Source: an uncultured Candidatus Bathyarchaeia archaeon
GTDB taxonomy: Archaea; Thermoproteota; Bathyarchaeia; Bathyarchaeales; Bathyarchaeaceae
Length of the DNA stretch: 64,000 nt
Assembly: GCA_964655075.1 (NCBI GenBank)
Contig: CAZZLD010000002.1
Location: forward strand, 99,140 to 163,139
Direction: 5' to 3'
Shown here piece by piece: positions 4,760 to 59,185 of the stretch (its first letter is position 1; each line of letters begins with the position of its first letter). The translations under genes were made by a program, and so were the position numbers. The notes under the pieces are model-generated. The model was not told the DNA's origin, ran no database searches, and saw nothing but the letters and a program-made list of their open reading frames with translations.

Positions 4760-5608
4760 TCACCAAGAAAGATCCTTTTCCGCGATTTTGCTCCAGCAGC
4801 TTCGACAAATGGGCAACAACTCTTTTTTGTAGTAGATAGTGACTTCAATGTCCGTGTTTTTGCATTCGCCATTCCACGGGTTCCTGCAGTGACCTCCCGA
4901 GGAGCTTCTTGAATGGGGTCTTTCCGCCATCGACTGTTTAGTTTGAGTTTTCTTCTTTAGGCGTTTTTTCGCTTTAGACTTGCGCTTCCTTTTCGCTTTG
5001 GCCTTGGGCTTTGCGGTTACTTTTTTTGCGGGTGGCTGCTTAGCGATTTTTGGAACCGGTGGAGCTGGCAGAGGCTCTTTGGTGGTCTCCAGCTTCGGTT
5101 CTTCAGCTACTTCTGCAATTTTCTTTTCCTCGAGAAGTGGCGTGATTAACGTTTGTACTTCTATAGGGTCTTCAACTTTTGGAGCTTCATCGATTTTGGC
5201 AGGTATTGCCGCTGGTTTAACAGGCTCGCATTGAATTTCCTTAACGTGAATTGATTCCTTTTTCATGGCGTCGAGTGTAGAAGTGATGGTAGAAAGCTGC
5301 GTTTCATATTTGCGCATTTTTTCCTCTTCCTCTGAATCGACACACCGGGACTTCAGCTTCGTGAGGAGGTGTTCTGAAGATTCTATTTGATTTTCAAGCT
5401 CAACGGCTCTCTTAGCCATTCTCTCCTTGAGTTCAATCTGACGCACTTTGATCTTTTCGATGACATCGTTAATTGTTTTGCTGACATAGTCGTACGTGGA
5501 CGCTGAAATTTTTCCCTCTTTGAATAATTCTTGCAGGGTCTGTTTCTTTCGCTCCGCTGACGCTAACTCCTGGACTATTTCTTCATAGGAACCCTTCCAG
5601 GAAAACAG
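4760..5608 (-). CDS. Coiled-coil protein, paralog B: coiled coil, Lys-rich basic tract, C-terminal Cys4 zinc-ribbon-like motif; probable CTG start
   Basis: The ORF track gives 4760-5446 (GTG start), but the frame is open up to a stop at 5627-5629. The extra 54 codons encode the conserved paralog N-terminus. The only start-like codon aligned with the TTG of paralog A is CTG (complement of 5606-5608), with AGGTGC 7 nt upstream. Tail: KPKAKAKRKRKSKAKKRLKKK ... HCRNPWNGEC...CRSCW. Confidence 0.6.
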   Translation of the reverse strand: MFSWKGSYEEIVQELASAERKKQTLQELFKEGKISASTYDYVSKTINDVIEKIKVRQIELKERMAKRAVELENQIESSEHLLTKLKSRCVDSEEEEKMRKYETQLSTITSTLDAMKKESIHVKEIQCEPVKPAAIPAKIDEAPKVEDPIEVQTLITPLLEEKKIAEVAEEPKLETTKEPLPAPPVPKIAKQPPAKKVTAKPKAKAKRKRKSKAKKRLKKKTQTKQSMAERPHSRSSSGGHCRNPWNGECKNTDIEVTIYYKKELLPICRSCWSKIAEKDLSW

Positions 5609-5813
5609 AGTTTCGCACCTGCCCCTTTAGAGTGAAGAAAAAACTGAGAGATAACATTTGTTAACATGATGATATAGTCTAAAATATTAAGATCATATTC
5701 TTCACGTTCTTTTGAACAAAAATATGTTTAAAAACACGCTCAAGAACAGCCTAAATATGGGCTTAAACATGGACATTCAGAAGCAAAAAACTCGAAACCA
5801 TTTTCTCTCAAGT

Positions 5814-6911
5814 TCACAGGTTCCAAAACGCTGAGTGAACCCGCTTAACCTCCTCTATAATTTTCTCACCCCTTTTCCTTACGCGAGAAATCGCCACCGG
5901 ACGCTCATCCTTAAGCCTGTATGAAGCCCCAGCCATTTTCGCCACAGTTGCAGCAACAAGTTTCCCGAGTAAAACGAGGTTGTAACCGCCCTCCAGAACC
6001 GCCACGAGTTTTCCTTCACAGAACGTAGAAGCAAAGTCCAAGGCTTTGCCGAAGGCTTCAAGGCAACCGAAAGCAGATAGAGAAAGACCCGCCACAGGGT
6101 CTGTGTAGTGCACGTCGAAGCCGACAGAAACGAGAACGAACTGTGGCGCGTACTGCTCAACTATGGGAGTTACGATTTGGTTGAGGGCACGCAGATAAAT
6201 TCGGTCATCAACCCGGAATGGGAAAGGAACGTTAACCGTGTAGCCGAGGCCCTCTCCTTCGCCGGTTTCGTCGATGAACCCAGTGCCTGGGAACCCGTGG
6301 GGGTCCTGGTGCAAACTTACGTAGAGCACCTTTTTGGTCGCATAGAAGATTTCTTGAGTTCCGTTTCCGTGGTGGGCATCAATGTCTAGAATTAGTATGC
6401 GTTCGAGGTTGAAGCGGTGAATTAGGTGCGCCGCAGCCACAGCTACGTTGTTGAAGATGCAGAAGCCAAGCGCATAGCTGGGACCGGCATGATGGCCCGG
6501 GGGACGCACTAAGGCAAAGGCGTTTTCAGCCTTCCCAGACATAACGAGGTCAACGGCGTCTATCGCTCCGCCCGCCGCGAGGACGGCTGCTTCAAAGCTT
6601 TTTGGAGAAACAACGGTGTCGCCGATGTCGAGGAGTCCGCCTCCGGCTTCGCAGAACCGCTTAACCGTCTGGACATACTCCGGATCGTGGACGAGTTCAA
6701 TTTCTTTGAGGTCAGCGGGTTTAGGATCCAACAGCGAAATTTCCTTGCGTTCAAGAAGCCCGCTTTTCTTCAGTTCTCTCATGATTACTTTTAGGCGGCT
6801 GGCTGACTCCACATGGCCTGGTCCGGGGTTATGCTCCAAATATTTAGGGGTGTAGATCAGGGCTGTTTTCGTCATTTTGCGCCCTTCAGCCGCAGGTTTA
6901 CGCCGCTTCAA
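5814..6911 (-). CDS. Histone deacetylase-family (AcuC / acetylpolyamine amidohydrolase-type) zinc deacetylase
   Basis: 365-aa ORF with signatures RPPGHHAG, DIDAHHGNGTQEIF and EGGYN. An alternative ATG at 6875 (MTKTALIYTP) would remove the 14-nt overlap with the upstream gene. Confidence 0.85.
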   Translation of the reverse strand: MKRRKPAAEGRKMTKTALIYTPKYLEHNPGPGHVESASRLKVIMRELKKSGLLERKEISLLDPKPADLKEIELVHDPEYVQTVKRFCEAGGGLLDIGDTVVSPKSFEAAVLAAGGAIDAVDLVMSGKAENAFALVRPPGHHAGPSYALGFCIFNNVAVAAAHLIHRFNLERILILDIDAHHGNGTQEIFYATKKVLYVSLHQDPHGFPGTGFIDETGEGEGLGYTVNVPFPFRVDDRIYLRALNQIVTPIVEQYAPQFVLVSVGFDVHYTDPVAGLSLSAFGCLEAFGKALDFASTFCEGKLVAVLEGGYNLVLLGKLVAATVAKMAGASYRLKDERPVAISRVRKRGEKIIEEVKRVHSAFWNL

Positions 6912-7731
6912 ACGTTTCTTTAATGTATTTTTGGAGAGTTAAGCCTTTGTTTTTCGCCAGTTTGCGGAGGGCTTTGTCGACGCCGGTTGCGTACTGAACG
7001 GCTTTCTTAGGCTTGTTGACGATGAACCCAGGCATACCCAGCAGTTGAGCAGTTTTCCGCAGCACTCTTTTCCTGAGGGGGTCGTCTGCAGAAGCGATGT
7101 TTAACCCCGCGGGCAAGCTCAAAGCGAATTTTATAACTTCATGATCCGCGAACGGGAGCCTCAACTCAACCTTATGATGGACGCAAACTGGAGAGAAACT
7201 CTGAAGGTTCATTTCAAGAGACGAAGCTACGTCGCGGCGCATGGCCTCCCGCACCGCCTCTAACCCTTGTTTTGTATAGACGCGGAGATAGTGGTGATAG
7301 CCGCCAAAAAGCTCGTCGCTGAGTTGACCTGCGAGAAGAACTTTGTAGCCCAGTTTTGAGGCGGTTTCAGCTGCCCAATAAAAGGGGACGGCGATGCTTA
7401 GTTTCATGGCGTCAGGTTCTCCGATCAGCCGCAGAACTGGAGAAGCGACCGCTTCAACATCGTTGAATTCGTACGTTTCAAGGCGGATGGGAAGACCTAA
7501 AGCCTCGGCGGCACGTTCTGTGAACGGAATCTCGGGCTGATTCCTCAAGCTCACCGAAACTAGAAAAACCTTCACTCCGCAGTTCTTAGCCAACACAGCG
7601 ATGATGCTGCTGTCTAAACCGCCTGAAAACGCAACCGCGACCTCCTCTACATCCGCAACCCGCTTCCGCGTAGCCTCCAAAAGCAGGTCCCGAACGCGCT
7701 CAGCCGCAACCAGAGCATCCATCCACATCAA
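6898..7731 (-). CDS. PP-loop ATP pyrophosphatase, asparagine-synthase C-terminal-domain-like (no glutaminase domain)
   Basis: 277 aa. PP-loop SGGLDSS near the N-terminus. LSDELFGGYHHY is typical of the Asn_synthase domain. Too short to contain the N-terminal GATase domain. Confidence 0.7.
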   Translation of the reverse strand: MMWMDALVAAERVRDLLLEATRKRVADVEEVAVAFSGGLDSSIIAVLAKNCGVKVFLVSVSLRNQPEIPFTERAAEALGLPIRLETYEFNDVEAVASPVLRLIGEPDAMKLSIAVPFYWAAETASKLGYKVLLAGQLSDELFGGYHHYLRVYTKQGLEAVREAMRRDVASSLEMNLQSFSPVCVHHKVELRLPFADHEVIKFALSLPAGLNIASADDPLRKRVLRKTAQLLGMPGFIVNKPKKAVQYATGVDKALRKLAKNKGLTLQKYIKETFEAA

Positions 7732-7817
7732 ACCTTCAAGCCCATTTTATGGTAAAAACCCTATTTGAATCCTATACAGAAGCCAAATAAAACTATAGAG
7801 CCTAGTTCCGCCGTCAG

Positions 7818-8786
7818 TTAAGCAAGCTTTATCGGTTTCTCTAGGCGGCTCAACAGAACCACTCGGCTTTCCGGCGCCTCATCAAGCACCTTATAACCTG
7901 TCTCCTCGGCCAGTTTATCCGCGAAAGTCCTGATCTCCCGGTGAGAAGGCATGTTCTCAAATCCGAGGCGCAAACGTGAAAACCCCACGTGCATGTAAGC
8001 CTTAGGCTCCACGTAGGTTGGATTCGCCTTTTCTAACAGCCGCGCGTAAACCTCAGGGTTCTTCAGGTTCAGGTCTCTAACAAGCGTCAACCGAACAACC
8101 TTGGGGCACTTGAAACTCGGCAACAGCGAAAGTGTTTCCTTAAGCTTTTCCCAAGCGTTCGGGATTTGCGGTCTGCAGGTTTTAATGAATGTACTCTTGT
8201 CTGGTGCACAGACTGAGACGTAAAGTTGAGTGGGTTCCTTGTTTAGGCGGGACAGAGCCTCTGGAATAGTGCCGTTAGAAACCAAAAACGTGGTTAAGCC
8301 CCGCCTGTGAAACTCCCCGATCAAATCGCCCAAGTAAGGGTAAAGCGTAGGCTCCCCAGCGAGGCTGATAGCAGCATGCTTAGGCGTCAAAGCCTCACGA
8401 TACTTTTCTTTGTCGGCTTTCGGGTTCCCCTTATATCCGCTCAGAAGTTTCTGCTGGGCTTTGAGGCAGCCCTCAACCACCTCTTCCGGCGGGTCCCACT
8501 TGGACCGGCTGGTTTCCGTCCACTTCAAGCCTGAATCGCCGCTTTGAACCCGCCAACAGAAGAGACAACGCATGGTGCAATATAGAAGCGACGGTGTCAT
8601 TTGAACGCACCTGTGGCTTTTAATCCCGTAGAATCTTTGCTTATAGCAAACCCGATCGTGAACAAGCGACTCGTAAAGCCACCTGCAACGCTTAACGGCG
8701 GAATGCCCTCCAACCAAATGATACTTCTGAGCCCTCAACACTCGAAGCAACCTGCTGGAAACTGAGGAAACCAAGTCTATCGCCAA
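7818..8786 (-). CDS. taw1: tRNA 4-demethylwyosine synthase (TYW1/Taw1), radical SAM
   Basis: 322 aa. Radical-SAM cluster CTMRCLFCWR. C-terminal wyosine-formation region (VEPKAYMHVGFSRLRL). Size and layout typical of archaeal Taw1. Confidence 0.85.
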   Translation of the reverse strand: MAIDLVSSVSSRLLRVLRAQKYHLVGGHSAVKRCRWLYESLVHDRVCYKQRFYGIKSHRCVQMTPSLLYCTMRCLFCWRVQSGDSGLKWTETSRSKWDPPEEVVEGCLKAQQKLLSGYKGNPKADKEKYREALTPKHAAISLAGEPTLYPYLGDLIGEFHRRGLTTFLVSNGTIPEALSRLNKEPTQLYVSVCAPDKSTFIKTCRPQIPNAWEKLKETLSLLPSFKCPKVVRLTLVRDLNLKNPEVYARLLEKANPTYVEPKAYMHVGFSRLRLGFENMPSHREIRTFADKLAEETGYKVLDEAPESRVVLLSRLEKPIKLA

Positions 8787-8923
8787 CAGTCAAAACATGA
8801 AAAACATGCCTATTATAAAATGCATCGCTCCACGCGGGCTAAAAATTGCTTGTTGGCATGCGTTTTGTAACGATTCACAATGATGAAAAGTATTAAATAA
8901 CTGGTCAGTTAATTATAAATGGG

Positions 8924-9610
8924 ATGAGATTGATCAAAAAACTCGTTTCTTTAGTTTTTGCATCGCTGTTCTTGCTTTCGACGATGGTTGGTGTGCTAGC
9001 TCAGAATGTGCACGATGTGGCTGTGGTAAGCGTCACGGTCACGCTTCCGTATGGGGCCGATGCTTGTTATCCAGGTTGGGGAAATTACCCTGAAGAATGG
9101 AGGCAAATCAGAATCGCCGTTGTGGTGGAGAATCTGGGCACCGAATACGAGAACTTCACCGTTACCACGTACTACGACGACCACGCCATCCAAGACTACT
9201 ACGGCAACCACACTCAAGCTGTCATTAACTTAGCGTCAGGAAGCAACGCAACGCTGACCTTCGCGTGGAACACCAAAGGCGTGAAACCGTGCACCTACTC
9301 AGGAAGTTATATACCCTACACCATATCGGCCAACGCCAGCATAGTCGCAGGCGAAACTAACACGGCGAACAACTACAAGGTCGACGGCACCGTAGTTGTC
9401 CGAAGGCCAGGGGACGCTACCGGTGACGGCCACTGCAAAGTCGGCGACCTCGCTATCTTGGGCTGTTTCTGGTACGGGGGGTCCTACCCAAGCCACGGTT
9501 ATAATTGGCTAGCGGACTTCAACGGCAACAGATGCATCGATGTCGGTGACCTAGCCATAATAGGCGCAAACTTCTACAAGGATTATCACGGGGTATACCC
9601 CTTGTTGTGA
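8924..9610 (+). CDS. Secreted CARDB-domain protein with C-terminal dockerin-like module
   Basis: Signal peptide MRLIKKLVSLVFASLFLLSTMVGVLA. CARDB-like start HDVAVVSVTV. Duplicated Ca-binding dockerin-type repeats GDATGDGHCKVGDLAILG and ADFNGNRCIDVGDLAIIG at the C-terminus. Confidence 0.7.
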   Translation: MRLIKKLVSLVFASLFLLSTMVGVLAQNVHDVAVVSVTVTLPYGADACYPGWGNYPEEWRQIRIAVVVENLGTEYENFTVTTYYDDHAIQDYYGNHTQAVINLASGSNATLTFAWNTKGVKPCTYSGSYIPYTISANASIVAGETNTANNYKVDGTVVVRRPGDATGDGHCKVGDLAILGCFWYGGSYPSHGYNWLADFNGNRCIDVGDLAIIGANFYKDYHGVYPLL

Positions 9611-9873
9611 ACAGCAAGTATCTTTCCAGCTCTTGAGACGCTTTAGGACCTTCAAAAGGCTAACAAAAAAACAAACTCCACAGAGACTAAAGTATAGAAA
9701 CTGAGAAAGAAGAATGGTCAAAAATACCCAGATTAATGGCAAACCTTTTATCATGTAAATAATAAATGGAATACAATTATGGAAGTTTGTTATATTGCGG
9801 AGACTCATAGTTCCCTACTCCAGAGTGCACGAATTTTTGAAAGCGAGAACCCCCAAACGTTAGGAGACAAAAA

Positions 9874-11118
9874 ATGAACCCAATTTACCTGATTGCAACA
9901 TGCATCCTCGCTTTCCTCTACGTATGGGTCCTATACAACATACCAATTTTAATCGTGGGCTTGAAACGGCTCCACCAGTCGGAACAGAAGAAAGAAAAAA
10001 CTTCGCGAGTAAACGAGAAGAAACTACCTACGTTTTCGATTCTAATTCCAATGAAAAACGAAGAAAAAGTCGCAGAAAGATCCCTAAACGCTTCGCTTAA
10101 ACTGGATTATCCTCTGCAAAAAAGAGAAATAATCGTGGTGGAAGACGGATCAAACGACAAAACAACAGAAATATGCAGACAATACGCCGATAAACATCCT
10201 AGCCAAATAAGAATCATACATAAACAAGGCTCAAACGGAAAGCCCTCTGCTCTGAACTACGCCATTAAACACGCAAAAGGTGAAATCATCGCCATATTCG
10301 ACGCAGACAATGTCCCAGAGAAAGACGCCCTGATAAAAGCAGCCTCATACTTCGAAGACCCCTCAATAGCCGCTGTACAAGGCACAACGTGTGCAATAAA
10401 CGCCGACGAGAACCTACTGACTAAATTCCTATCATACGAAGAAGCCGCGTGGCTAAGGACATACATCCAAGGGAAAGATGCCCTCAACCTGTTTGTGCCC
10501 CTGACCGGCAGCTGCCAGTTCCTACGGCGCAATGTGCTTGAAAAGGTCGGCGGATGGGATGAAAAATCTTTAAGTGAAGATGTGGAGATGGCAGCGAAAC
10601 TTACGGAAAACGGACACCGAATAAGGTATGCCTCAGACATAATCTCGTGGCAGGAAGCTCCAGCGAATGTGATTTCGTTCATAAAACAGCGGACAAGATG
10701 GTTCAGAGGGTACATGGAGGTCGCGTTGAAATACGGAAAACTGTTAACGAAGATCAGCAGAAAGAACATTGACGCAGAGGTCACCCTTATGGGACCATAC
10801 GTGTTCATCCTATCTCTTGTAGGCTACTTTACGACAGCGTATTCCTTTGTAGCCCCAAGGCAATTTCACAGTGTCCTCACGGTTAGTTCGCTTTTTACGT
10901 CATTGATTACTCTAGTTACGTTGTTAATCGTGGGGGTGGCTCTGATTTACGCAACGAAACCGCGAAGAATAAAGAACCTGTTTTGGTTACCCTTCATATA
11001 CGCTTATTGGGGATTACAAACGATACTTGCTACGCGCGCCTTGATGGAAATAATTTTTAGAAGACCGAGAAACTGGACGAAAACGACAAAAACAGGAACG
11101 ACAACAGTCACGTTTTAA
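9874..11118 (+). CDS. Membrane-bound family 2 glycosyltransferase (processive, cellulose/chitin-synthase-like)
   Basis: 414 aa. N-terminal TM, VEDGSND, FDADN (DxD), QRTRWFRG (QxxRW-type motif), several C-terminal TM helices. Confidence 0.85.
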   Translation: MNPIYLIATCILAFLYVWVLYNIPILIVGLKRLHQSEQKKEKTSRVNEKKLPTFSILIPMKNEEKVAERSLNASLKLDYPLQKREIIVVEDGSNDKTTEICRQYADKHPSQIRIIHKQGSNGKPSALNYAIKHAKGEIIAIFDADNVPEKDALIKAASYFEDPSIAAVQGTTCAINADENLLTKFLSYEEAAWLRTYIQGKDALNLFVPLTGSCQFLRRNVLEKVGGWDEKSLSEDVEMAAKLTENGHRIRYASDIISWQEAPANVISFIKQRTRWFRGYMEVALKYGKLLTKISRKNIDAEVTLMGPYVFILSLVGYFTTAYSFVAPRQFHSVLTVSSLFTSLITLVTLLIVGVALIYATKPRRIKNLFWLPFIYAYWGLQTILATRALMEIIFRRPRNWTKTTKTGTTTVTF

Positions 11119-11268
11119 AGCAAAATTCCCCGCAGGCGTTAAGGCGAAACTTTTTATGTTACATAAGCCTCACGTTTCAAAAACTGCAGAATTGCCAAGG
11201 ATACGACGGCGAGAACTTTGATCGAAACGTTCGCTTTAATAGCGTTTTACCCAAAGGGAGGTTAATGA

Positions 11269-12195
11269 TTGAAGAAGGAAAAAAGCGAAGAAAAAGCGGG
11301 TCCTACCGAAACGAAGCCGACTAGGCGGTTTTTAAAATACGAGGCGGCTAGGAGGATTGTGCAGTTTTGTTCCTTTTTGCTTTTTAACGCAGGCATTTTC
11401 GGGTTGGCGGCTACGCCGGTGCTCCTTCCGGTTCTTCAGAGCCTAGGGATCCCTCAGAAAACCGTTGGAGGAGCTTTCGGAGCCCTTCAGCTGATGCTTT
11501 ACGAAGTTGTTTTCCCGTGGCTTCCCTTAACCGCGATTTTCTTAACAGCCATTCTATTGGGCAGAGCGCTCTGCGGGTGGGCCTGTCCCTTCGGTTTCGT
11601 TCAGGATTTATTGGGCTACGTCAAAGGGAAGCATACGGAGGTTTCTCCTAGGACCCATGGGGGATTGATTAAAGTGAAGTATCTGATTCTGGTGATCATT
11701 TTGTTCATCAGCGGAACGATAGCCGTCTCATCGATCATAGGAATGGGCCAGGAATACAGAAGTGCCCTAGGCGAGTTCGCTAAAGCACCATTCAACGTCT
11801 TAAGCCCTTCTGACACGCTTTTCGCGGCTTTACCTCGATTCATTTTTGATGCCCGTTACTCGCCTATAGCGTTGCCCACACTACTCCTCTGGATTCGTCT
11901 CGCAATAATGGTTTGCGTCATGGTCTTAGCGGTTTACGTTGAGAGAAGTTGGTGCAGGTACCTCTGCCCTCTAGGAGCCTTTATGGCTGTTTTAAATCGA
12001 TTCAGCTTCCTCGGTTTGAAGAGGAACCCCACGAAATGCGCAAAAGCTGGATGCCGCGAATGCGTTGAGGTATGCCCCACAAAGGTTCCCATCCTTGATT
12101 TGCCCTGGGAGAAGTTCACTGACCCCGAATGTATATATTGCCTTAAGTGTGTTGAAGCCTGCCCAACTAAGGCTATAAGACCAAAGTTTCCATGA
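11269..12195 (+). CDS. NapH/MauN-type polytopic 4Fe-4S-binding membrane protein
   Basis: 308 aa. Membrane-embedded CGWACPFG and CRYLCPLG motifs. C-terminal two-cluster ferredoxin motifs CAKAGCRECVEVCP and CIYCLKCVEACP. Confidence 0.75.
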   Translation: MKKEKSEEKAGPTETKPTRRFLKYEAARRIVQFCSFLLFNAGIFGLAATPVLLPVLQSLGIPQKTVGGAFGALQLMLYEVVFPWLPLTAIFLTAILLGRALCGWACPFGFVQDLLGYVKGKHTEVSPRTHGGLIKVKYLILVIILFISGTIAVSSIIGMGQEYRSALGEFAKAPFNVLSPSDTLFAALPRFIFDARYSPIALPTLLLWIRLAIMVCVMVLAVYVERSWCRYLCPLGAFMAVLNRFSFLGLKRNPTKCAKAGCRECVEVCPTKVPILDLPWEKFTDPECIYCLKCVEACPTKAIRPKFP

Positions 12196-12262
12196 AAGCC
12201 GTTTTTAGGGCATTACATAAGATTTATACTAAATTAGTTTAATTAGAACACTGAAAGGGCTC

Positions 12263-13243
12263 GTGATGAAGAAGAAAGCTGATCTTAAGTTCAAACCGAT
12301 CGGATGGCAAGGAATAAAACTTCGAGTGCCAGAGGACTGGAACTTCGTTGTTGAGTCAGGGGATAAAGAAGCCGGCTATATGGGGCTCAACTCAAGTTAC
12401 TCTAGGTTCGAACTTAAATGGGAGAAGATGAAGAAGAAAAAGACGTTTTCCATCGATACGATTATTGATAATCTAATTAAAAAAATGAAGAAATCCAACA
12501 AAACGCTTGAACTTCTAAGTAGAAGAAACATGAAGGTTTTTGGTCACAACGCCATTTTCTTCAAGTTTAAGACCATAGAAAAAGGCTACGGCATCACTTG
12601 GTATTGCGATGATAAAGAGAAGGTTTTCGTTGGGCTTTTCAGTTTTAAGTCGTCTGAAAGTGAAAAAGCTAAGGCGGCCTTTGACGGTCTCGTGGATTCC
12701 GTAAAGTGTCACGGTCGAGGTAAACAGGATCAATGGGCGGTGTTTGGTTTTTCTTTGAAAGTGCCCTCGGAATTAAAGTTGACGGAGAGAAAGTTTCTGG
12801 TTGGTCTCGGCACCCTTTCATTCTACAATGAGAAAATGCGTCCGTTTCGCACTGAAAAGTACGATTTAGTTTTTCAATATTGGAGTCCAGCTACTCTGAA
12901 GTTCAAGGATACTTATGATGACCCTAAGAAGTGGTTTGAGGAAGTTTACGAGAAGACTTTGAAGGAGCGCTTCAAAGGGAAACTTAAGAAGAAACGTTTT
13001 CAAAGCTTCAGAATTATGGATCACGCAGCTAAAACCTTGACGAGTACCGTTAAGAGGGGATTTATGAGCCAGGTCATTATGAAGAATAAAACCTGCATAT
13101 GGTACTGTCCCGAAACCAATCGAATTTACGCAGTAACGCTGTCTAAGGCCTTAAGCAAAATGCGGTTTTTACCCACGAAGAAATACGAAACTGAACCAAA
13201 GGAAATGTTCAACAAAATACTAGCGTCAATCTCATGCCACTAG
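12263..13243 (+). CDS. Hypothetical Lys-rich soluble protein
   Basis: 326-aa ORF in the same orientation and tight spacing as its neighbours. No motif recognised. Confidence 0.5.
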   Translation: MMKKKADLKFKPIGWQGIKLRVPEDWNFVVESGDKEAGYMGLNSSYSRFELKWEKMKKKKTFSIDTIIDNLIKKMKKSNKTLELLSRRNMKVFGHNAIFFKFKTIEKGYGITWYCDDKEKVFVGLFSFKSSESEKAKAAFDGLVDSVKCHGRGKQDQWAVFGFSLKVPSELKLTERKFLVGLGTLSFYNEKMRPFRTEKYDLVFQYWSPATLKFKDTYDDPKKWFEEVYEKTLKERFKGKLKKKRFQSFRIMDHAAKTLTSTVKRGFMSQVIMKNKTCIWYCPETNRIYAVTLSKALSKMRFLPTKKYETEPKEMFNKILASISCH

Positions 13244-13308
13244 GCTTTTTCGTAAATGCATATAAGTCTGAGGGTTACATGTTCTGTTGAAAACCAGAGA
13301 GGGTTCAT

Positions 13309-52428: not shown

Positions 52429-53069
52429 TCATTAAACAGTTCACGGTTGGAATTCTCGACACAAATTGCTACCTCGTGAGCTGCTCTAAGACCCGAAATG
52501 CCCTTGTCATAGACCCCGGTTTCAACAAGAAAACCGAAGCTGAAAAAATCCTAGAGGAAATCAACCGCCACAAATTACACGTCAAATACATAGTCAACAC
52601 GCACGGGCATCCGGACCACACATCCGGCAACAGAGCCATGAAAGAGGCGACCAGCGCACCCATACTCATCCACGAAGACGACGCGGCGCTGCTCGAAGAA
52701 CCTGGGAAGAACATGTTCGCATCATGGGGCGTCACCACAGACTCTCCACCAGCCGACAGGCTTCTCCGCGACGGAGACATGGTTCAAACCGGAGAAATCC
52801 ACCTCAGAGTTCTTCACACTCCAGGACACAGCCCCGGAAGCATATGCCTGTTAGACGAAGACACCGATGTGATCTTCACAGGCGACACGCTTTTTGCCGG
52901 CTCCATCGGCAGAACAGACCTGCCCAAGTCATCTCCTGAAGCGATGACGCGTTCGCTTAAGAAACTTTTGTCCTTGCCAGACCACTTAAAAGTATATCCT
53001 GGACACTACCCAGCTTCGACTATGGGCGCGGAAAAAAGAAGCAATCCTTTCCTTCTTAATCTTGTTTAA
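52425..53069 (+). CDS. MBL-fold metallo-hydrolase (glyoxalase II-like)
   Basis: 214 aa. NTHGHPDHTSGN (HxHxDH), HTPGHSPGS, GDTLF, YPGH. Confidence 0.85.
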   Translation: MIIKQFTVGILDTNCYLVSCSKTRNALVIDPGFNKKTEAEKILEEINRHKLHVKYIVNTHGHPDHTSGNRAMKEATSAPILIHEDDAALLEEPGKNMFASWGVTTDSPPADRLLRDGDMVQTGEIHLRVLHTPGHSPGSICLLDEDTDVIFTGDTLFAGSIGRTDLPKSSPEAMTRSLKKLLSLPDHLKVYPGHYPASTMGAEKRSNPFLLNLV

Positions 53070-53086
53070 CCAAGGAATGTTTGTGC

Positions 53087-53848
53087 CTAGGTCTCCGGTT
53101 TTGCACAGAAGATGACGTGTTCCATTGGAAATTCCAATCCGTGTTCTCGGAGGTCTTTCTCCTGTTTTGTTATGAATTTTGGATCTGTTTTCCATTTTTT
53201 CAATTGCTCTACAGCGGTCTCAAAGCTGAGCCTCAGATTTGTTTCAAAATATTTCACAGTAATTTTTGTGAAACCTATTTTATGCATGAGAACAGCAACC
53301 TCGTCCGCGGAAGGTGAAAACCAGTCAGGATGTGGCGTCAATCTTTCCAAGGAATAAGCGTCTGACTCGATAAGAATCTCCTGTGCTTTGTTTCCCGGGA
53401 ATGGGCTAAGTTCAGCGTGAGCCATCTGTCCCCTCGGCTTTAAGATTCTGTAGAACTCCTTGAGAGCCTTTTCTAGACCCTGTTTGTCCAAGTCACAGAA
53501 CAATTCATTAGAAACTATCAGATCCACAGCCTCGTCATCGATGGTTTCCATATTCCTTACATCGCCCTTAACTATCTCAATGCTTTTCTCAATTTTCTTT
53601 CCTTGTATAGCTCGTTTCAAAATCTCTAAATCTCCTTCGTAAGGACCTGAAGAAATATCGAAAGCTATTATCTTGCATCTATTGCCAATCTTCTGAGCTA
53701 GGGGCATCGTTAATCGCCCACTTCCACAACCAGCCTCTAAAACCGTCGATACATGATCAACATCAATGTTTTCCATTAAAAAGTCCGCTAACCTATTATA
53801 CATGAACCTTAAAGCCGACTCTAACTCCTTCGGATTGTCAACAATCAT
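53087..53848 (-). CDS. Class I SAM-dependent methyltransferase
   Basis: Trimmed from ORF 53087-54292 to ATG 53848 (MIVDNPKE). Motif I VLEAGCGSGRLT, post-I FDIS, DLIVSNELF. The discarded N-terminal 148 codons are Arg-rich and antisense to the next gene. Confidence 0.75.
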   Translation of the reverse strand: MIVDNPKELESALRFMYNRLADFLMENIDVDHVSTVLEAGCGSGRLTMPLAQKIGNRCKIIAFDISSGPYEGDLEILKRAIQGKKIEKSIEIVKGDVRNMETIDDEAVDLIVSNELFCDLDKQGLEKALKEFYRILKPRGQMAHAELSPFPGNKAQEILIESDAYSLERLTPHPDWFSPSADEVAVLMHKIGFTKITVKYFETNLRLSFETAVEQLKKWKTDPKFITKQEKDLREHGLEFPMEHVIFCAKPET

Positions 53849-53865
53849 ATTATGACTGTCTCCTT

Positions 53866-55230
53866 CTAAACGGGAAAGTATTTTGTGAGTTTTTCTTGGT
53901 GCATGGCGTCCTTTAACAGCACGCTGGTTTGCATCCAGTCTTCGAGTCTTATTTCGAACTTTGAAGCCGCGTACGCTAAGGCTTCCTTCAGGTCGTTGAA
54001 TTTCATGTAGTCTCGCCTCAGGGCTTCCCTCACGCTTTCTCGGTTGATCCAAACGCCTAGGGGCGTGATGAACCCGGGATGAATTTCCCTCAAGGCCACC
54101 ACCGTGGCTTGTCTGCCTTCTGCCGCTAAGTGCTCCGCTGCCGCAAGCCTCACAGCGTAGTAGCATCCTCCAAGCGTTGCATACGTGGTGCGTCCCTTGT
54201 AGCCTTCCCAGTCGCCGCACATGGCTACGCTTCGGCTTTGTGGGTTCCACGCGGTTCCCGGATACCAAGCCTCGATCCACTCGTACTTCCAACCGGAAGG
54301 CATCATAAGCACCACGAACCGGTTATCCAAGTAGTTTAACTCGTAAACTCTGTACTCGTTTATAGCGGGCTTGCGCTTCACTTCCTCTTCGATGATGCGC
54401 TGAGACAGAATGGAGTCAACGGCGGTTATGCTCCACCTTGTGGGAACCAGCCTCCTCTGCTTTTTCAACCCGAAAGCTCCGACGCTGAAAGCCTTCTGGA
54501 TTCTGCTCACAGGCACCTTGTCCTGATAAAGGTCGAGAACAGCATCCGCCGCCTTCAAATCCGCGTCTCCATAAGCCCTTTCGACTCGGTGATCAACTTT
54601 TAGTGATCCGAGTTGTATGCCCCGCAGCAGCGCTGAGGGTCCCATAGGCTGGTTTTCGCCGTCGAAGTAGTATCTGTCTCCGGGCTTCTTTTTGAATGCC
54701 ACTTCAGTGTCTATGGATGCGTCCGAGAGGGCTAGGTCCAGCGTCTTGTCCATGAGCTTTCCGGTTTTCTCAGGTTTTTTTACGTTGACCCTGAACTTGC
54801 CCCTGACGAGTTTGATTCTGAAGTCCACGATTTCTTCAACGGGTTTGCCTAACCAAAGCTCAGGGGCATCCATCAAGGAAGTGTCTCCGAAAACCGGGGG
54901 CACCAGCGGACCAGCGTAAACGTACGGCCAGCCGATGCGTCCCACGAACACTCCGGGAGGTGAGGAACCCGCCATTTCCGTGCCGGATATCAGCGATTTC
55001 ACTTGGATGTAGGAATAGAGCTTCATGGCGGCGGGGCATCTCGGCTTTCCGCAGAGTCTTTTTCCGCCCCTGCAGGCCAAACAGAGGTTTCCAGACGAGA
55101 CTTTGAGCTTCAACTCGTCGGCGTCGTAGTTGAGGTCCCGCGCCGTCTTCACGTCGTCGATGAGGTGTTCTGCCCAAGGAACTCGGCGCTTAACTTTCTT
55201 CACGAACTTTTTGCCCCACCGACGCCTCAA
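53866..55230 (-). CDS. NreA-like archaeal DNA repair protein (Nre_N/Nre_C, DUF650/651)
   Basis: 454 aa. The N-terminal Cys cluster CLACRGGKRLCGKPRCP and the overall length match my memory of the Nre family. Not verifiable here. Confidence 0.55.
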   Translation of the reverse strand: MRRRWGKKFVKKVKRRVPWAEHLIDDVKTARDLNYDADELKLKVSSGNLCLACRGGKRLCGKPRCPAAMKLYSYIQVKSLISGTEMAGSSPPGVFVGRIGWPYVYAGPLVPPVFGDTSLMDAPELWLGKPVEEIVDFRIKLVRGKFRVNVKKPEKTGKLMDKTLDLALSDASIDTEVAFKKKPGDRYYFDGENQPMGPSALLRGIQLGSLKVDHRVERAYGDADLKAADAVLDLYQDKVPVSRIQKAFSVGAFGLKKQRRLVPTRWSITAVDSILSQRIIEEEVKRKPAINEYRVYELNYLDNRFVVLMMPSGWKYEWIEAWYPGTAWNPQSRSVAMCGDWEGYKGRTTYATLGGCYYAVRLAAAEHLAAEGRQATVVALREIHPGFITPLGVWINRESVREALRRDYMKFNDLKEALAYAASKFEIRLEDWMQTSVLLKDAMHQEKLTKYFPV

Positions 55231-55260
55231 AGCTTCAATAACTCCACATAGGAACCTTTG

Positions 55261-55303
55261 TAGAGAAGAAAAATAAATGCATTTGCACTAAACTATGCTT
55301 GAG
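55261..55303 (+). repeat. Left copy of a ~43-bp imperfect direct repeat (about 36/43 identical to 57751-57793)
   Basis: tagagaagaaaaataaatgcatttgcactaaactatgcttgag vs tggggaagagaaataaacgcatttgcattagactatgcttggg. Confidence 0.85.
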
Positions 55304-55390
55304 TGTTGTTAAGGGAAATCCCGCATTAGATGAGTAAGACAGCAAGATATTAGAGATAAAAATACAGTATTCATTAAACAAGGTGGATCT

Positions 55391-56908
55391 ATGTCAATTT
55401 CAGAACGATTAACAAAAATAGAACAAGCTCGAAAAATGGCGATGTCTTTAATAGGATTATGTGAGAAGAGCCCCATCCTAAAGGACGTATTAATTGTAGC
55501 CATGTTTTCTCGTAAAGAGATAACACAAGGAGAATTTGGGTTAGATGTTAAAGCGATACTTGAAAATCTAAGTTTACTTAACTATTCTAAGAACGATATA
55601 GAAAGAGTAATTTCAAAGATGAAAACTGAAGGATATCTTCTTTCATTCCAATGGAGGCAAAGAAAAGTTTATGATTTTGCGTACAAAAATGACACTGAAG
55701 TACAGAACGTCTTTCTGGGCACTCTCAAAGAAAGTCAGTTTATACAAAATCAGATAAATCAAATTCAACGAAAAGCTGAGAAATATCTTACTAAGAGAAT
55801 TAAGGAGGAAAAAGATCAAGAAATAGCTTCGGTTCTCCGACTTCTTTATCAAATAGCCTTGCCTGAGATCGGGGTTTATCTTGAAACGGGAGGTATAGCA
55901 ACATTTCATTTCAAGTCAATTTGCGGTGCAAAATGGTTGTATAGATTAAGTGAACTAATCAAAAACGGCATAGTTGGTATAAGATTGAACTTTCTGTCGA
56001 CAAACCCTGCTTTTGAGTATTTTATTCCGGAATATATCCGTAACACAGTTTCGTCGTATATTACGTATTCCAACATTATTCTGAAACAGGAGTTGGAGAG
56101 TTTAATAAAGCCTCCACTATTTTCAGAGAATTTTGAAATCCCACAGAAGCATAAAGAAATACTCTTCAGATATGGTCTTTGCTATCGAAAATGGACGACT
56201 CCGAAGGTTGTGTTAACCACAGAATATGTGCCCACAGATTATATGTATAAAATCTTCATTGAAGAAATAACAGAAATTCCTGAGATGATAGTGAAGTCCT
56301 ACTCGGATGATGAATTGTGGACGTATTATCTGATTAGTAAGGCACTCATAAACGCAAAACAAAATATTCACATCTGCTCTCCTTACGTTGATCATACAAT
56401 TTGGACTTTTTTTATTCGAGCTATCCCTAAAAACATAGAGGTGAAGTTATTAACATCAAGAACTGGCGGTAAGGAAAAAGAAAGGGCTTTCATAAAAGTC
56501 CTACAAAGATTCTGGAAAAGCGGTTATAGAATCGAGGTAATTAAGATTTTACGTGAAGGCGGCAAAGTTCCCCTTCACGACCGTTACTTGATTCAAGATA
56601 ACAGGTTTGTTATTGATCTTCCCGGAGACTTTAAGAAAGGATTCAGCGGTAGAAGTAAAGATGAGGATATCAAATGGATTCCATTTGAGGATAAAGTTGC
56701 TAACTACAATGCTCGGTTTAATAAATATTGGAATCTAGTATTTGAAGAGACAGACTTTGACATGGATGCTTCACCGTTCTTAGCGACAAAACTGTCTTAT
56801 GTCAATCCAGATTCTTTGATTTCAACTAGGATTGAAATAGCGAAAGGAAAAGTAAGGAGAGAAGAAAAATCTTTGAGTCTGGAACAGTATACTTCTGAGC
56901 GCGGTTAG
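55391..56908 (+). CDS. Hypothetical protein: N-terminal wHTH-like region plus C-terminal PLD/HKD-like domain (H-x-R-x4-D variant)
   Basis: 505 aa, AT-rich codon usage. C-terminus: NIHICSPYVD...EVKLLTS...VPLHDRYLIQDNRFVIDLPGDF resembles a single-copy HKD (HxKx4D) nuclease/phospholipase D fold with K replaced by R. N-terminus DIERVISKMKTEGYLLSFQWRQRKVYDF is wHTH-wing-like. Confidence 0.5.
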   Translation: MSISERLTKIEQARKMAMSLIGLCEKSPILKDVLIVAMFSRKEITQGEFGLDVKAILENLSLLNYSKNDIERVISKMKTEGYLLSFQWRQRKVYDFAYKNDTEVQNVFLGTLKESQFIQNQINQIQRKAEKYLTKRIKEEKDQEIASVLRLLYQIALPEIGVYLETGGIATFHFKSICGAKWLYRLSELIKNGIVGIRLNFLSTNPAFEYFIPEYIRNTVSSYITYSNIILKQELESLIKPPLFSENFEIPQKHKEILFRYGLCYRKWTTPKVVLTTEYVPTDYMYKIFIEEITEIPEMIVKSYSDDELWTYYLISKALINAKQNIHICSPYVDHTIWTFFIRAIPKNIEVKLLTSRTGGKEKERAFIKVLQRFWKSGYRIEVIKILREGGKVPLHDRYLIQDNRFVIDLPGDFKKGFSGRSKDEDIKWIPFEDKVANYNARFNKYWNLVFEETDFDMDASPFLATKLSYVNPDSLISTRIEIAKGKVRREEKSLSLEQYTSERG

Positions 56909-56957
56909 TTTCTAGTCTTTTTCCTTTTTCTCTCTTAAAACAAACTTCACCCCAGGT

Positions 56958-57674
56958 CTAGCCGCCATTCTTTCCAGCCATCTCATGTATTCTCGTTGCA
57001 GATCCGCGGGCATTCGGTAATCCAAACCGATATTGACATTGAGGACTACCTCTCCGGGTGAAACGGCCTCTGGAAGAGGTGGAAACTCCTCTCCCTCCTT
57101 TGAGGGAATTTCTCCCCCCTCCCTCTTCTCCTTTTTCTCCTGCAGGTTCTTTTAGAGTGAAAGTTTCTTCGTCCTTGTTGTAATCAATCTTGTTTGCATA
57201 ATTCATTATTTCACAAGTTTTTTCAGCGACAAGTTTTTGGTACAAAGGCGCCCATGTTTTATTTTGTGTTTTCATTAAAAAGAAACCTAAGCCTGAAGTT
57301 GTTCCATGTTTTCCTGAACACTCTTTATCTACGAATTCAACTATTCTTTTCCAAAGTGCCGTCTTTTCTATTTGAGCACTCAAGATTTCCCTAGCTTTGT
57401 TTTCTTTTTCTTCTGCCAATTGATGGGCATATTCTGTCCCAGTACGACTTATTTTTGCTTTTTTTCTACTTTGTGTGTACGCAATAAAATCAAAAGAGTG
57501 AAGTATCGACAAAATTCTTCCTAATGCTTTTGGTTTCAGCTCAACTTCTTTTGAAAGTTCATTCTTGGTTACTTCCTTCCCGAGAAATTTACTAAATAGT
57601 ATCTTCATCACTTTGTTGATATTATCAACATCAACTATTGCATGGCTCGGAACCACTATTTTTTCTTCAGACAT
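56958..57674 (-). CDS. Hypothetical wHTH-like protein; 3' end probably frameshifted at a homopolymer (alternative end at 56912)
   Basis: 238-aa ORF. After ..GEKGEEGGG the annotated frame becomes Gly/Arg/Ser junk. The +1 frame reads EIPSKEGEEFPPLPEAVSPGEVVLNVNIGLDYRMPADLQREYMRWLERMAARPGVKFVLREKKEKD*. See findings. Confidence 0.45.
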   Translation of the reverse strand: MSEEKIVVPSHAIVDVDNINKVMKILFSKFLGKEVTKNELSKEVELKPKALGRILSILHSFDFIAYTQSRKKAKISRTGTEYAHQLAEEKENKAREILSAQIEKTALWKRIVEFVDKECSGKHGTTSGLGFFLMKTQNKTWAPLYQKLVAEKTCEIMNYANKIDYNKDEETFTLKEPAGEKGEEGGGRNSLKGGRGVSTSSRGRFTRRGSPQCQYRFGLPNARGSATRIHEMAGKNGG

Positions 57675-57750
57675 TTCCTCTCAAGATTAAATCGTTCTTC
57701 CTGATTATATGTTTTACCCAGACACTCCATCTGATCTATCCTTGTCAATA

Positions 57751-57793
57751 TGGGGAAGAGAAATAAACGCATTTGCATTAGACTATGCTTGGG
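57751..57793 (+). repeat. Right copy of the ~43-bp direct repeat
   Basis: See 55261-55303. The copies are spaced 2490 bp apart. Confidence 0.85.
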
Positions 57794-57913
57794 CTGGCAT
57801 TAGAGAGATGTTTCTTCGGTTAACGGCGAGTTTGCGGCTTTCCGGATGGTTGACGGGAAAATCGGCGAAATCGCTATAAAACTGTGCAAGATAAATAGTC
57901 GGGAGACGGCGAA

Positions 57914-59185
57914 ATGAGGGTCAAACTTCCCTACGGAAAAACTGAAACTGTGACTATCGAGGTGCCGGACGAAAACTTGGCCTTCGTAATCGACAGAGGC
58001 GAAGCGTCAACGCTTAAAGATGCTAGAGAGGCGTTGAGGGAAGCTCTTAGAAGCCCGATTGGAACCCCCGCTCTGAAAGACATGGTGAAAAAGGGAGACA
58101 GGGTCGTTATTGTAGGCGACGATGCAACTCGCCCTACTCCTCAAAAGATGCTCATGCCTGTTTTGTTGGATGAGCTTAATGCTGCTGGAATCCCAGATGG
58201 GGATATTACGCTTGTTGTTGCCCTCGGGACCCATCGGAAGATGAGCAGAAACGAAACGCTGGAAATGTACGGCCGAGAGGTTACGGAGCGGATACGGATC
58301 GAGAATCACGACTGTGGGAATTCTAAGCGCCTAGTTGATCTGGGTGAAGCCGAGTCCGGGTTTCCGATAAAGCTGAACAGGACGGTGTACGAGGCTGATT
58401 TCGTTATAGGCGCCGGCAACATCAGCCCTCATATTTATGCCGGTTGGGGCGGAGGAGGAAAGATCATTCTGCCGGGCGTCTGCGGAACGGAGACAACCTC
58501 CATGATTCACCTTCTCGGCGGCAAAACTAGACCCTTCAGCACCTTAATCGGCAAACGGGACAATGCGGTTAGAAAGCGCATAGACGAGGTTGCGCTCAAA
58601 GCGGGACTAAAGCTGATCGTGAACACGGTGCTGAACCGAGAGGAGAAGGTTCACCGGATAGTTGCGGGGCACCCAGTTGAAGCGTTCAGAGAAGGTATCA
58701 ACGTCGCTGAGAAGGTCTACTGTCAGAAGGTGCCCGGTTACGTGGATGTAGCCATTGTCGCGAGTTACCCTGCTGACGTCGACTATTGGCAATCCATTAA
58801 ACCCGTCGTCCACGCGGCTCTGGGAGTGAGACCCGGCGGAACAATTGTCCTAATTACGCCGTGCCCAGAAGGCATATCGCCCGTGCATACTATCTTCAAG
58901 GAAAGAGCGAAGCTGGGCTACGAAGCTAATCTGGAGGCCATTGAAAGAGGGGAACTGGAGGATAGGGTGGCTGGAGGAACCCTTCTGCTACACGGGCAAA
59001 TACTGGAACGAGCCGAGGTAGTCTGCTATTCTGAAGGGCTTAAGGAAAGTGACAAGGAGGCTCTTGGGTTTAAACACGCTGAAACGCCACAGGAAGCCGT
59101 GGAAACGGCCCTTAAAAAGCAAGGTGAAAAGGCTACGGTTGGCGTTCTAAAATGCGGAGATGTTCTGCCAAAAGTGACCTCTTGA
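57914..59185 (+). CDS. larA: LarA-family (nickel-pincer lactate racemase-like, DUF2088) protein
   Basis: 423 aa. VVIVGDDATRPTP, VALGTHR, SPHIYAGWGGGGKIILPG. Family call only; substrate unknown. Confidence 0.75.
   Translation: MRVKLPYGKTETVTIEVPDENLAFVIDRGEASTLKDAREALREALRSPIGTPALKDMVKKGDRVVIVGDDATRPTPQKMLMPVLLDELNAAGIPDGDITLVVALGTHRKMSRNETLEMYGREVTERIRIENHDCGNSKRLVDLGEAESGFPIKLNRTVYEADFVIGAGNISPHIYAGWGGGGKIILPGVCGTETTSMIHLLGGKTRPFSTLIGKRDNAVRKRIDEVALKAGLKLIVNTVLNREEKVHRIVAGHPVEAFREGINVAEKVYCQKVPGYVDVAIVASYPADVDYWQSIKPVVHAALGVRPGGTIVLITPCPEGISPVHTIFKERAKLGYEANLEAIERGELEDRVAGGTLLLHGQILERAEVVCYSEGLKESDKEALGFKHAETPQEAVETALKKQGEKATVGVLKCGDVLPKVTS

Follow-up and report, generated by a model that had tools for sequence, protein, structure and literature searches.

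How an AT-rich islet bounded by direct repeats came to lie among housekeeping genes of an archaeal chromosome, and what its two products might do there, are the questions raised by a locus on contig CAZZLD010000002.1 (assembly GCA_964655075.1) of an uncultured Candidatus Bathyarchaeia archaeon. The source genome is a 1.97-Mb archaeal metagenome-assembled genome of 14 contigs. We refer to the whole 64-kb stretch analysed as the window and to the segment between the two direct-repeat copies as the islet, which encodes a 505-aa protein with a winged helix-turn-helix (wHTH) and a phospholipase D (PLD)-like domain and, convergently, a smaller wHTH partner. Our favoured reading, to which as a whole we give a probability of roughly 0.55, is that the islet arrived by horizontal transfer as a discrete cassette of two genes, belongs to a rare archaeal family and acts as a DNA-targeting defence or addiction module.

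The direct repeat is 33/37 identical between 55265-55301 and 57755-57791, and 36/43 identical over 55261-55303 and 57751-57793. Its ungapped score is 27, compared with a peak of 13 among 100 shuffles of the two 700-nt flanks, and no third copy was found in the 1.97-Mb assembly at up to 7 mismatches. A chance match and a dispersed repeat family were ruled out, since the genome holds two copies only; an exact-pattern scan of metagenome contigs with the repeat core gave no match. The GC content of the islet is 36.4%, against 46.6% for the window and 52-57% for the adjoining genes, and GC content at third codon positions (GC3) is 0.33 in the gene for the 505-aa protein and 0.30 in the partner gene, compared with 0.66 in Nre, 0.56 in LarA and 0.52-0.58 in the other neighbours.

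The species representatives in GTDB were too distant to provide an empty site for the window, and in 40/40 relatives Nre is not adjacent to this LarA paralogue. The closest relative with the same gene order is L065 (NCBI GCA_975966115.1), a metagenome-derived contig found through its 90%-identical Nre protein, in which genes for an MBL hydrolase, Nre, a 143-aa Prok-JAB protein, LarA, OGG and four POR subunits follow each other in the order of the window. L065 contains one copy of the repeat and neither islet gene. When this contig is reverse-complemented (L065rc), positions 775-2218 align to window 53874-55318 with 86% DNA identity, 2166-2236 to window 57755-57825, and 2546-3908 to window 57813-59175 with 82% DNA identity. 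One stretch of the 99-bp Nre/JAB intergenic region in L065 matches both repeat copies, and each flank continues its own side. Because L065 has a single copy and no islet, we interpret the islet, with very high confidence, as a foreign cassette inserted into the bidirectional promoter between Nre and the JAB-LarA operon with duplication of the target. Comparison with L065 shows at least 37 bp of this bidirectional promoter to have been duplicated on insertion; the segment 55302-55327 is weakly similar to L065, which suggests that the duplication may originally have spanned ~55-60 bp, although this estimate is not secure. Since the promoter was duplicated, each flanking host gene retained a promoter copy. 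Four substitutions relative to L065 are common to the two window copies, and four differences separate the copies from each other (11% diverged). The common substitutions imply that the copies derive from a target belonging to this lineage, which was duplicated and has diverged since. Upstream of Nre in genome G017, the Nre-proximal, TATA-proximal half of the repeat (TGCAAAnnCATTTATTTyTCTT) is conserved as well; this genome has one promoter copy, no LarA next to Nre and no pair.

Recombination between the repeats would leave exactly the single-copy site of L065 if the pair were ancestral at this locus and had been precisely deleted in relatives. We find this scarcely credible, as a GC3 of 0.30-0.33 is foreign to this genome, G017 likewise has one promoter copy without the pair, the family occurs in 1/401 genomes of the same order, namely this one only, and the same pair is present in unrelated contexts elsewhere. 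Much of an earlier, sequence-only reading of the locus is thereby upheld: the direct repeats of ~43 bp, far above chance at 36/43, and the AT-rich islet both stand, and its interpretation of the repeats as att or target-duplication remnants fits the single-copy empty site. It had also considered that relatives might all carry the two genes within the same flanks, and the syntenic L065, with one repeat copy and no pair, speaks against this, as does the rarity of the family in the order. The islet had been placed between the nreA-like and larA-like genes; the insertion is borne out by the empty site, but the right-hand neighbour at that time was the Prok-JAB gene upstream of LarA. No tRNA or Rfam non-coding RNA was detected at the insertion site, and a target of that kind was rejected for this reason; an integron-type cassette was rejected because the duplicated sequence is a host promoter and not attC.

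The insertion in the window is old, since the repeats have diverged, the partner gene is frameshifted and the neighbouring JAB gene has been deleted. An old insertion with such lesions implies that the module in this genome may be partly decayed. The window counterpart of the L065 JAB gene is a 5' stub fused out of frame to the last ~35 codons, and ~310 bp were deleted from its interior between short repeats resembling GTT(A)AACG (microhomology), after which the frame changed. With JAB reduced to a remnant, LarA has lost its upstream operon partner. On the other side of the islet (55228-55260), the window has an ATG where Nre starts in G017, equally distant from the conserved TATA, that does not lie in frame; Nre can start only at TTG 55230 or later here, and its N-terminus and leader have therefore been remodelled.

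The same pair of genes recurs elsewhere. Among 5.8 billion proteins, the 505-aa protein has 14 homologues over its full length, each ~504 aa long and 46-53% identical to it, and a profile search of 1.84 billion cluster representatives returned one full-length cluster and otherwise distant proteins with the C-terminal domain only. About 20 loci are known, all in uncultured archaeal (Bathyarchaeia-type) metagenomes, and each genome has a single cassette copy; the named homologues of the Nre protein in the window are likewise all from Candidatus Bathyarchaeia/Bathyarchaeota. The PLD family had no match in a viral contig collection or in a pattern scan of species genome contigs. The PLD gene (+) and the convergent partner (-) are kept in all 7 independent contexts, and the flanks differ each time. 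TldD and POR genes flank the pair in L034, succinate dehydrogenase and acyl-CoA dehydrogenase genes in L036, and an HD protein gene in L042. Neighbours of a conflict type accompany other copies: an integrase and DprA in L035, together with a MORC-like HATPase, DUF87 and SbcCD; an integrase in L038, which has a methyltransferase flank; AAA_22 with HEPN and a DNA methylase in L040/L074; and an Mrr-type endonuclease and an integrase in L068. In the recovered contexts the partner is 253-277 aa long and the 3' end of its gene overlaps or abuts the PLD gene. A metagenome search with the partner motif yielded 11 loci with a convergent PLD gene in 10 of them, that is, in every one with enough sequence. 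The two genes very probably form an obligate pair.

Comparison of cassette with cassette by blastn delimits a shared unit of ~2.4 kb. The homology is confined to the interval between a point ~50 nt upstream of the PLD start and one ~45 nt upstream of the partner start, with a conserved TATA-type promoter at either end. Even copies that are 90-95% identical (L072/L073/L075; L069/L070) have unrelated flanks. In the copy closest to that of the window, L067 (76% amino-acid identity for the partner and 70% for the PLD protein), nucleotide homology stops at window 57717, so that the right border of the islet falls between this position and the repeat copy at 57755.

A second insertion was resolved to the base in L034, a 717-kb JGI contig, in which the pair and a small Zn-ribbon open reading frame (ORF) occupy a 2948-bp segment (9491-12438) flanked by an exact 15-bp duplication, TAAAACCTTTTAGGT. 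In G171, which is 91% identical on both sides of the insert, the 15-mer is present once and the flanks are contiguous, as expected of an empty site; G194 (72% identical) also lacks the insert. The target in L034 is the divergent promoter between TldD and porA. Both resolved targets are thus AT-rich divergent promoters with short palindromes, although they are unrelated in sequence, as are the ends of the two inserts, and no terminal inverted repeats were found at the ends of either the window or the L034 insert. These are two rare base-resolved cases of small cassettes entering archaeal chromosomes, both at bidirectional promoters, and since the promoter was duplicated in each, neither host gene lost expression. 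In L068, a 21/23 direct repeat (3566-3588 and 7529-7551) encloses the PLD pair and, with it, the gene for an Mrr_cat-type endonuclease; this may be a third duplication-flanked insertion. No close relatives were found for empty-site comparison of the PhoU flank of L068 or the HD flank of L042, and for L036 the genome G023 is not syntenic beyond the succinate dehydrogenase gene. Several copies of the cassette encode this Zn-ribbon protein (CPQC...CxxC, 58-114 aa) immediately before the PLD gene (9677-9850 in L034). L034, L069 and L073 have the whole gene, L070 has a truncated one, and the window, L072 and L075 have none, so that the protein may be an optional third component.

The inserting enzyme is not encoded in the cassette. 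No integrase lies between the repeats, and tblastn with the integrases of L035, L038 and L068 found no match in the genome, a search limited to these queries, as no general Pfam integrase scan was made. This fits the earlier suggestion of a decayed or trans-mobilised element without an integrase of its own, and the cassette most likely entered either with the help of a recombinase supplied in trans or when a staggered break was closed by illegitimate end-joining. Alternatively, the islet could be a cis-mobilisable remnant of an integrase-type integrative element, its repeats being attL and attR formed by site-specific recombination between the attP of a circular element and the promoter sequence, with the integrase acting in trans or later lost. 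Host-derived direct repeats 15-40 bp long are a typical mark of integrated elements in archaea, and the islet resembles att-bounded archaeal elements and CIME-type (cis-mobilisable element) remnants in being small and AT-rich, with host-sequence repeats, an empty site and no integrase inside. Tyrosine integrases near the copies in L035, L038 and L068 are in keeping with this route, as is the position of the pair at the end of an integrase-bearing 7.2-kb element in L038, bounded by (G)ATTTCTGTAATATAG repeats; 3/4 mismatches between the window repeats would also fit a crossover inside GCATTTGCA. We nevertheless consider it rather unlikely. Spacers of 38 and 35 bp leave no room for an integrase between the repeats, the genome has no homologue of the three integrases searched for, there is no tRNA target, and the repeats at the window, L034, L068 and L038 are unrelated, hence without the common att of such elements. 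Moreover, the window copies carry common lineage-specific substitutions, unlike a foreign attP, and the ends of the transferred segment vary between copies. This alternative bears on the question of entry only, and is compatible with a defence role for the cargo.

The L038 element itself (5130-13280; JGI Ga0315296_10002713) begins with a gene for a 465-aa tyrosine recombinase and ends with the PLD pair, and in addition to the (G)ATTTCTGTAATATAG repeats it has inverted termini of ~21-26 bp (TAGATT..GTCATTCTATATCAA). A third (G)ATTTCTGTAATATAG copy follows an adjoining single methyltransferase gene, which suggests tandem accretion at one site, and four copies of a 22-nt GGGTAAAGTTTTATCC-like motif are located between the cargo genes.

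A more radical possibility is that the pair moves itself, the PLD-type protein and its partner nicking and transferring DNA via a covalent phospho-histidine and inserting the cassette at staggered cuts. The covalent phospho-histidine intermediate of the restriction enzyme BfiI is capable of transesterification. In its favour, the target duplications of the two resolved insertions are clean (an exact one of 15 bp and one of 37 bp that is 89% identical) and enclose no other recombinase, the minimal conserved unit is exactly two genes and their promoters, copies of 90-95% identity are present in different contexts, and the two resolved targets are of the same kind. If true, this would be a mobile element with a PLD-superfamily 'transposase' that inserts at AT-rich divergent promoters and generates unusually long target duplications (15-37 bp). 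We regard it as very unlikely, however, because the cassette lacks terminal inverted repeats and conserved termini, its ends differ from copy to copy (with a whole or truncated Zn-ribbon gene or none, and in L068 with the Mrr gene co-inserted), the duplications are of unequal length, each genome has a single copy and no precedent for a PLD-family transposase was found in the literature. The features of a transposon or insertion sequence are likewise lacking, as the duplications are 37 and 15 bp long, with no terminal inverted repeats, no recognised transposase and one copy per genome. Given the variable ends of the moved DNA, the cassette resembles cargo carried along several routes more closely than it does a fixed-end transposon.

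The 505-aa protein consists of an N-terminal wHTH (residues 1-100), a coiled helix (102-140), a conserved middle region (~143-323), a PLD-like domain (~317-450) and a beta-hairpin tail (460-500). Residues 317-408 match Pfam PLDc_2 at 27.2 bits (cut-off 27, E 3.8e-6), and 14/15 family members have this match. In the full-length AlphaFold model residues 1-130 are confidently predicted, with a winged helix (pLDDT, the predicted local distance difference test score, 84-96) followed by a long helix, and the C-terminal domain is predicted with moderate confidence. Foldseek aligned the N-terminal part of this model with the winged helices of TubR, AspA, ArsR/MarR-type proteins and SSV1 F-93, and the C-terminal part with PLDs and Tdp1. 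A separate model of residues 296-505 (pLDDT 72, predicted template modelling score 0.72) gave 18 PDB matches at E<=1e-3, all of them in the PLD superfamily, with FAM83A, Streptomyces PLD, vaccinia F13, Zucchini, NucT and PLD3 as the top matches at probability 1.0. The Pfam match and the PDB matches of the domain model agree in assigning a PLD fold. The motif VPLHDRYLIQDN is present, with H396 at 56576-56578 and D403 at 56597-56599, and H396, R398 and D403 (LHDRYLIQD) are invariant in the family (n=15). The same LH[DG]R variant of the motif is seen in distant relatives with other architectures, and several of these have winged helices too. Within the family the PLD gene is under purifying selection (dN/dS 0.08-0.25).

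The partner comprises a TFIIE_alpha-like wHTH, a helical region, a low-complexity linker and a conserved C-terminal motif of ~45 aa, LDYRxPxDLQR[ED]YMxWL (LDYRxPxDLQREYMxWLExM), which is rich in invariant positions. The N-terminal two-thirds are of two types that are only ~17% identical, the window type being common to P0017, P0018 and L067, and the C-terminal motif is conserved across both. We infer that the partner may combine a constant docking peptide with an exchangeable DNA-binding or sensor part. In the window its frame breaks at a run of six G residues, where the intact homologues P0017 and P0018 read through the equivalent region; the break may represent a true pseudogene, phase variation or an assembly error. 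With regard to both proteins the sequence-only reading proved largely accurate. The wHTH with a single H-x-R-x4-D PLD/HKD-like unit agrees with the Pfam match, the winged-helix model and the invariant motif; an absence of PLD-fold similarity, which would have counted against it, is contradicted by the 27.2-bit PLDc_2 match and the 18 PLD-superfamily structures; and the second protein is indeed a wHTH protein, of a TFIIE_alpha-like kind. Of the two convergent genes it had described, the pair and its orientation hold, but the second gene is frameshifted and the true C-terminal ~60 aa of its product lie in another frame.

These features raise the possibility of a nuclease directed and controlled by its partner. 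The 505-aa protein would bind DNA via its N-terminal winged helix and dimerise via the single PLD-type domain, so that two H-x-R-x4-D motifs would form one phosphodiesterase site, and the dimer would cut DNA (nucleic acid) independently of metal via a phospho-histidine intermediate. The dimer and phospho-histidine steps are proposed because the single-HKD nucleases Nuc, NucT, BfiI and Zucchini work in this way: in these enzymes a dimer forms one active site and cleavage is metal-independent, proceeding through phospho-histidine. The partner would dock on the 505-aa protein through its conserved C-terminal ~45-aa motif, and its exchangeable wHTH/helical N-terminal part would gate or direct the nuclease. 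Convergent, overlapping transcription units could balance expression of the two genes, and the pair might serve in defence against incoming DNA or in post-segregational addiction. PLD proteins also assist Argonaute and DISARM systems. We hold a nuclease-based conflict function as a tentative proposal with somewhat less than even odds. A type II toxin-antitoxin pair was rejected, since the genes are large (505 and 253-277 aa), convergent and each has its own promoter.

Several observations weigh against our reading. The conserved middle region of the 505-aa protein (residues 143-323, ~180 aa) is poorly predicted in the full-length AlphaFold model. The invariant Arg398 stands where the canonical HKD motif has Lys, and the GSxN part of that motif is not recognisable, a conserved PGD...GFSG being present in its place, so that catalysis is not assured. 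The best Foldseek E-value belongs to FAM83A (4urj), which has a non-catalytic PLD fold, and distant relatives weakly match Pfam MIT_C. Searches of PHROGs, NCBIfam and PDB sequences returned nothing specific for the islet proteins, and in PADLOC-DB 2.0 no system model was matched, the PLD protein showing weak PLD-domain matches only (DrmC, E 0.0035; MkoC, 0.012) and the partner none, with no defence companion genes in the islet. Three contexts (the window, L034 and L036) are purely housekeeping. A frameshifted partner gene beside an intact PLD gene is unexpected if the partner is an antitoxin, unless the break is an assembly error or the genes are silent. Finally, the duplications differ in length (15 versus 37 bp) and the ends are variable.

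The replacement of Lys by Arg, the missing GSxN, the pseudo-PLD FAM83A as top structural match, the MIT_C matches and the wHTH domains in both proteins could together indicate that both are ordinary transcription regulators, the PLD-like domain being a non-catalytic ligand-, phosphate- or membrane-binding module and the cassette accessory cargo with no role in conflict. The MIT_C domain of MITD1 and the DUF1669 domain of FAM83 proteins are eukaryotic scaffolding or membrane-binding domains. The 505-aa protein resembles them in its best Foldseek match, the weak MIT_C similarity of its relatives and its altered HKD motif, and differs from them in its invariant His, Arg and Asp, its fusion to a wHTH and its residence in a mobile prokaryotic cassette. 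Arg is still able to bind phosphate, and the three residues do not vary among members that are 46-100% identical, nor in distant relatives, which speaks for a site conserved for phosphate handling. A plain regulator without a target operon would moreover not be expected to be strictly co-transferred, patchily distributed and associated with integrases and nucleases. For these reasons a purely regulatory role seems distinctly improbable to us, and we retain the defence or addiction module as the preferred reading.

Among characterised proteins, the closest parallels to the 505-aa protein are the single-HKD nucleases (Salmonella Nuc, H. pylori NucT, BfiI and Zucchini/MitoPLD), which have one PLD-fold domain per chain. 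The motif His and Asp are conserved in the 505-aa protein, Zucchini (4h4a, TMt 0.58) and NucT (6ehi, 0.56) are among its structural matches and, as in BfiI, the PLD domain is fused to a DNA-binding domain. In contrast to these nucleases, it has H-x-R-x4-D in place of H-x-K-x4-D and no clear GSxN, and adds the conserved middle region of ~180 aa, the beta-hairpin tail and an obligate second protein; its sequence similarity to PLD nucleases is at the Pfam threshold only, with no match in a PDB sequence search. A winged helix (wH) and a PLD domain are also combined in one chain in the fusion endonucleases Aba4572I and CbaI, proposed as 6mA-dependent type IV enzymes (PMC11037411). Enzymes of this kind are located in variable or defence regions and are reported to be toxic, in E. 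coli, and hard to express (PMC11037411); the candidates are defined by a single chain in which PLD precedes wH and by toxicity that depends on Dam methylation, in line with their proposed role as methylation-dependent type IV restriction enzymes (PMC11037411). They are bacterial single-chain proteins with HxDx4K/HxEx4K motifs and no partner (PMC11037411), whereas in the 505-aa protein the order is reversed, with the wH N-terminal; the likeness is one of architecture as described in that paper. As proposed for the islet, a PLD-fold effector forms part of a multi-gene conflict system in DISARM (DrmC), in Mokosh (the C-terminal PLD of MkoC) and with the PLD proteins associated with prokaryotic Argonaute, pAgo (PMC11442185). 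Unlike these systems, the islet has no DrmA/B/MI, helicases or Argonaute, its scores are far below those for membership, and architecture and partner differ.

The cassette is not a member of any described system, and is best viewed as a variant among PLD-nuclease conflict modules carried as mobile cargo. If our reading is true, it would be an undescribed two-component DNA-targeting module, so far confined to uncultured sediment archaea (Bathyarchaeia), a lineage whose defence and mobile-element repertoire is, to our knowledge, almost unknown. It would also represent a distinct branch of PLD nucleases, set apart by the H-x-R motif, by a winged helix at the N-terminus and by a docking partner whose sensor domains are exchangeable. 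The coordinates of the islet features and host flanks are collected in Table 1.

Table 1. Islet features and adjoining host genes, in window coordinates.
Feature	Coordinates	Strand	Remarks
Left repeat copy	55265..55301		duplicated target; native bidirectional Nre/JAB promoter core; holds palindrome AAATGCATTT; contiguous with Nre flank in L065
Right repeat copy	57755..57791		contiguous with JAB-remnant/LarA flank; lies within the alignment of L065rc 2166-2236
Inserted segment	55302..57754		2453 bp, 36% GC; not in relative L065
Approximate conserved cassette core	55341..57719		~50 nt upstream of PLD-gene ATG to ~45 nt upstream of partner ATG; blastn
505-aa PLD protein gene	55391..56908	+	ORF list, Pfam, structure models
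H-x-R-x4-D motif (H396, R398, D403)	56576..56599	+	invariant in 15/15 family members
Partner gene	56912..57674	-	frameshifted; ORF frame 56958-57674 (238 aa); C-terminal motif in other frame, ending 56912-56914
C6 (coding-strand G6) homopolymer	57114..57119	-	point where partner reading frame shifts
Prok-JAB remnant	57808..57913	+	35 aa, 51% identity to L065 JAB C-terminus; 3' end overlaps LarA start
Nre-family gene, host flank	53866..55230	-	Nre_N 3e-95, Nre_C 3e-36; 90% identical protein in L065
LarA-like gene, host flank	57914..59185	+	Lar_N 5e-63; syntenic in L065

Elsewhere in the same genome (C1:~361,330-362,600; L003 1330-2609, minus strand), a 175-aa protein with the same variant PLD motif (CHDRLFFIDD ... 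SVKDAGKK) is 33% identical to residues 302-385 of the 505-aa protein. Its gene follows two small HTH-like genes (105 and 107 aa) and adjoins the RFC small-subunit gene, and the set looks like a relative of the wHTH-PLD proteins in miniature, 'split' form.

A further segment of lower GC content (41% GC, GC3 0.44) lies close to the islet at 53056-53873, between the MBL-hydrolase gene and Nre. This ~0.8-kb segment is not found in L065, where those two genes overlap tail to tail, and it carries a class-I S-adenosylmethionine (SAM) methyltransferase gene. The 401-aa ORF 53087-54292 overlaps Nre, and the true start of the methyltransferase lies well within this ORF. A short imperfect repeat, TCCTTCTTAA / TCCTTCTAAA, is present at the two junctions, and the segment is a second small insertion beside the islet.

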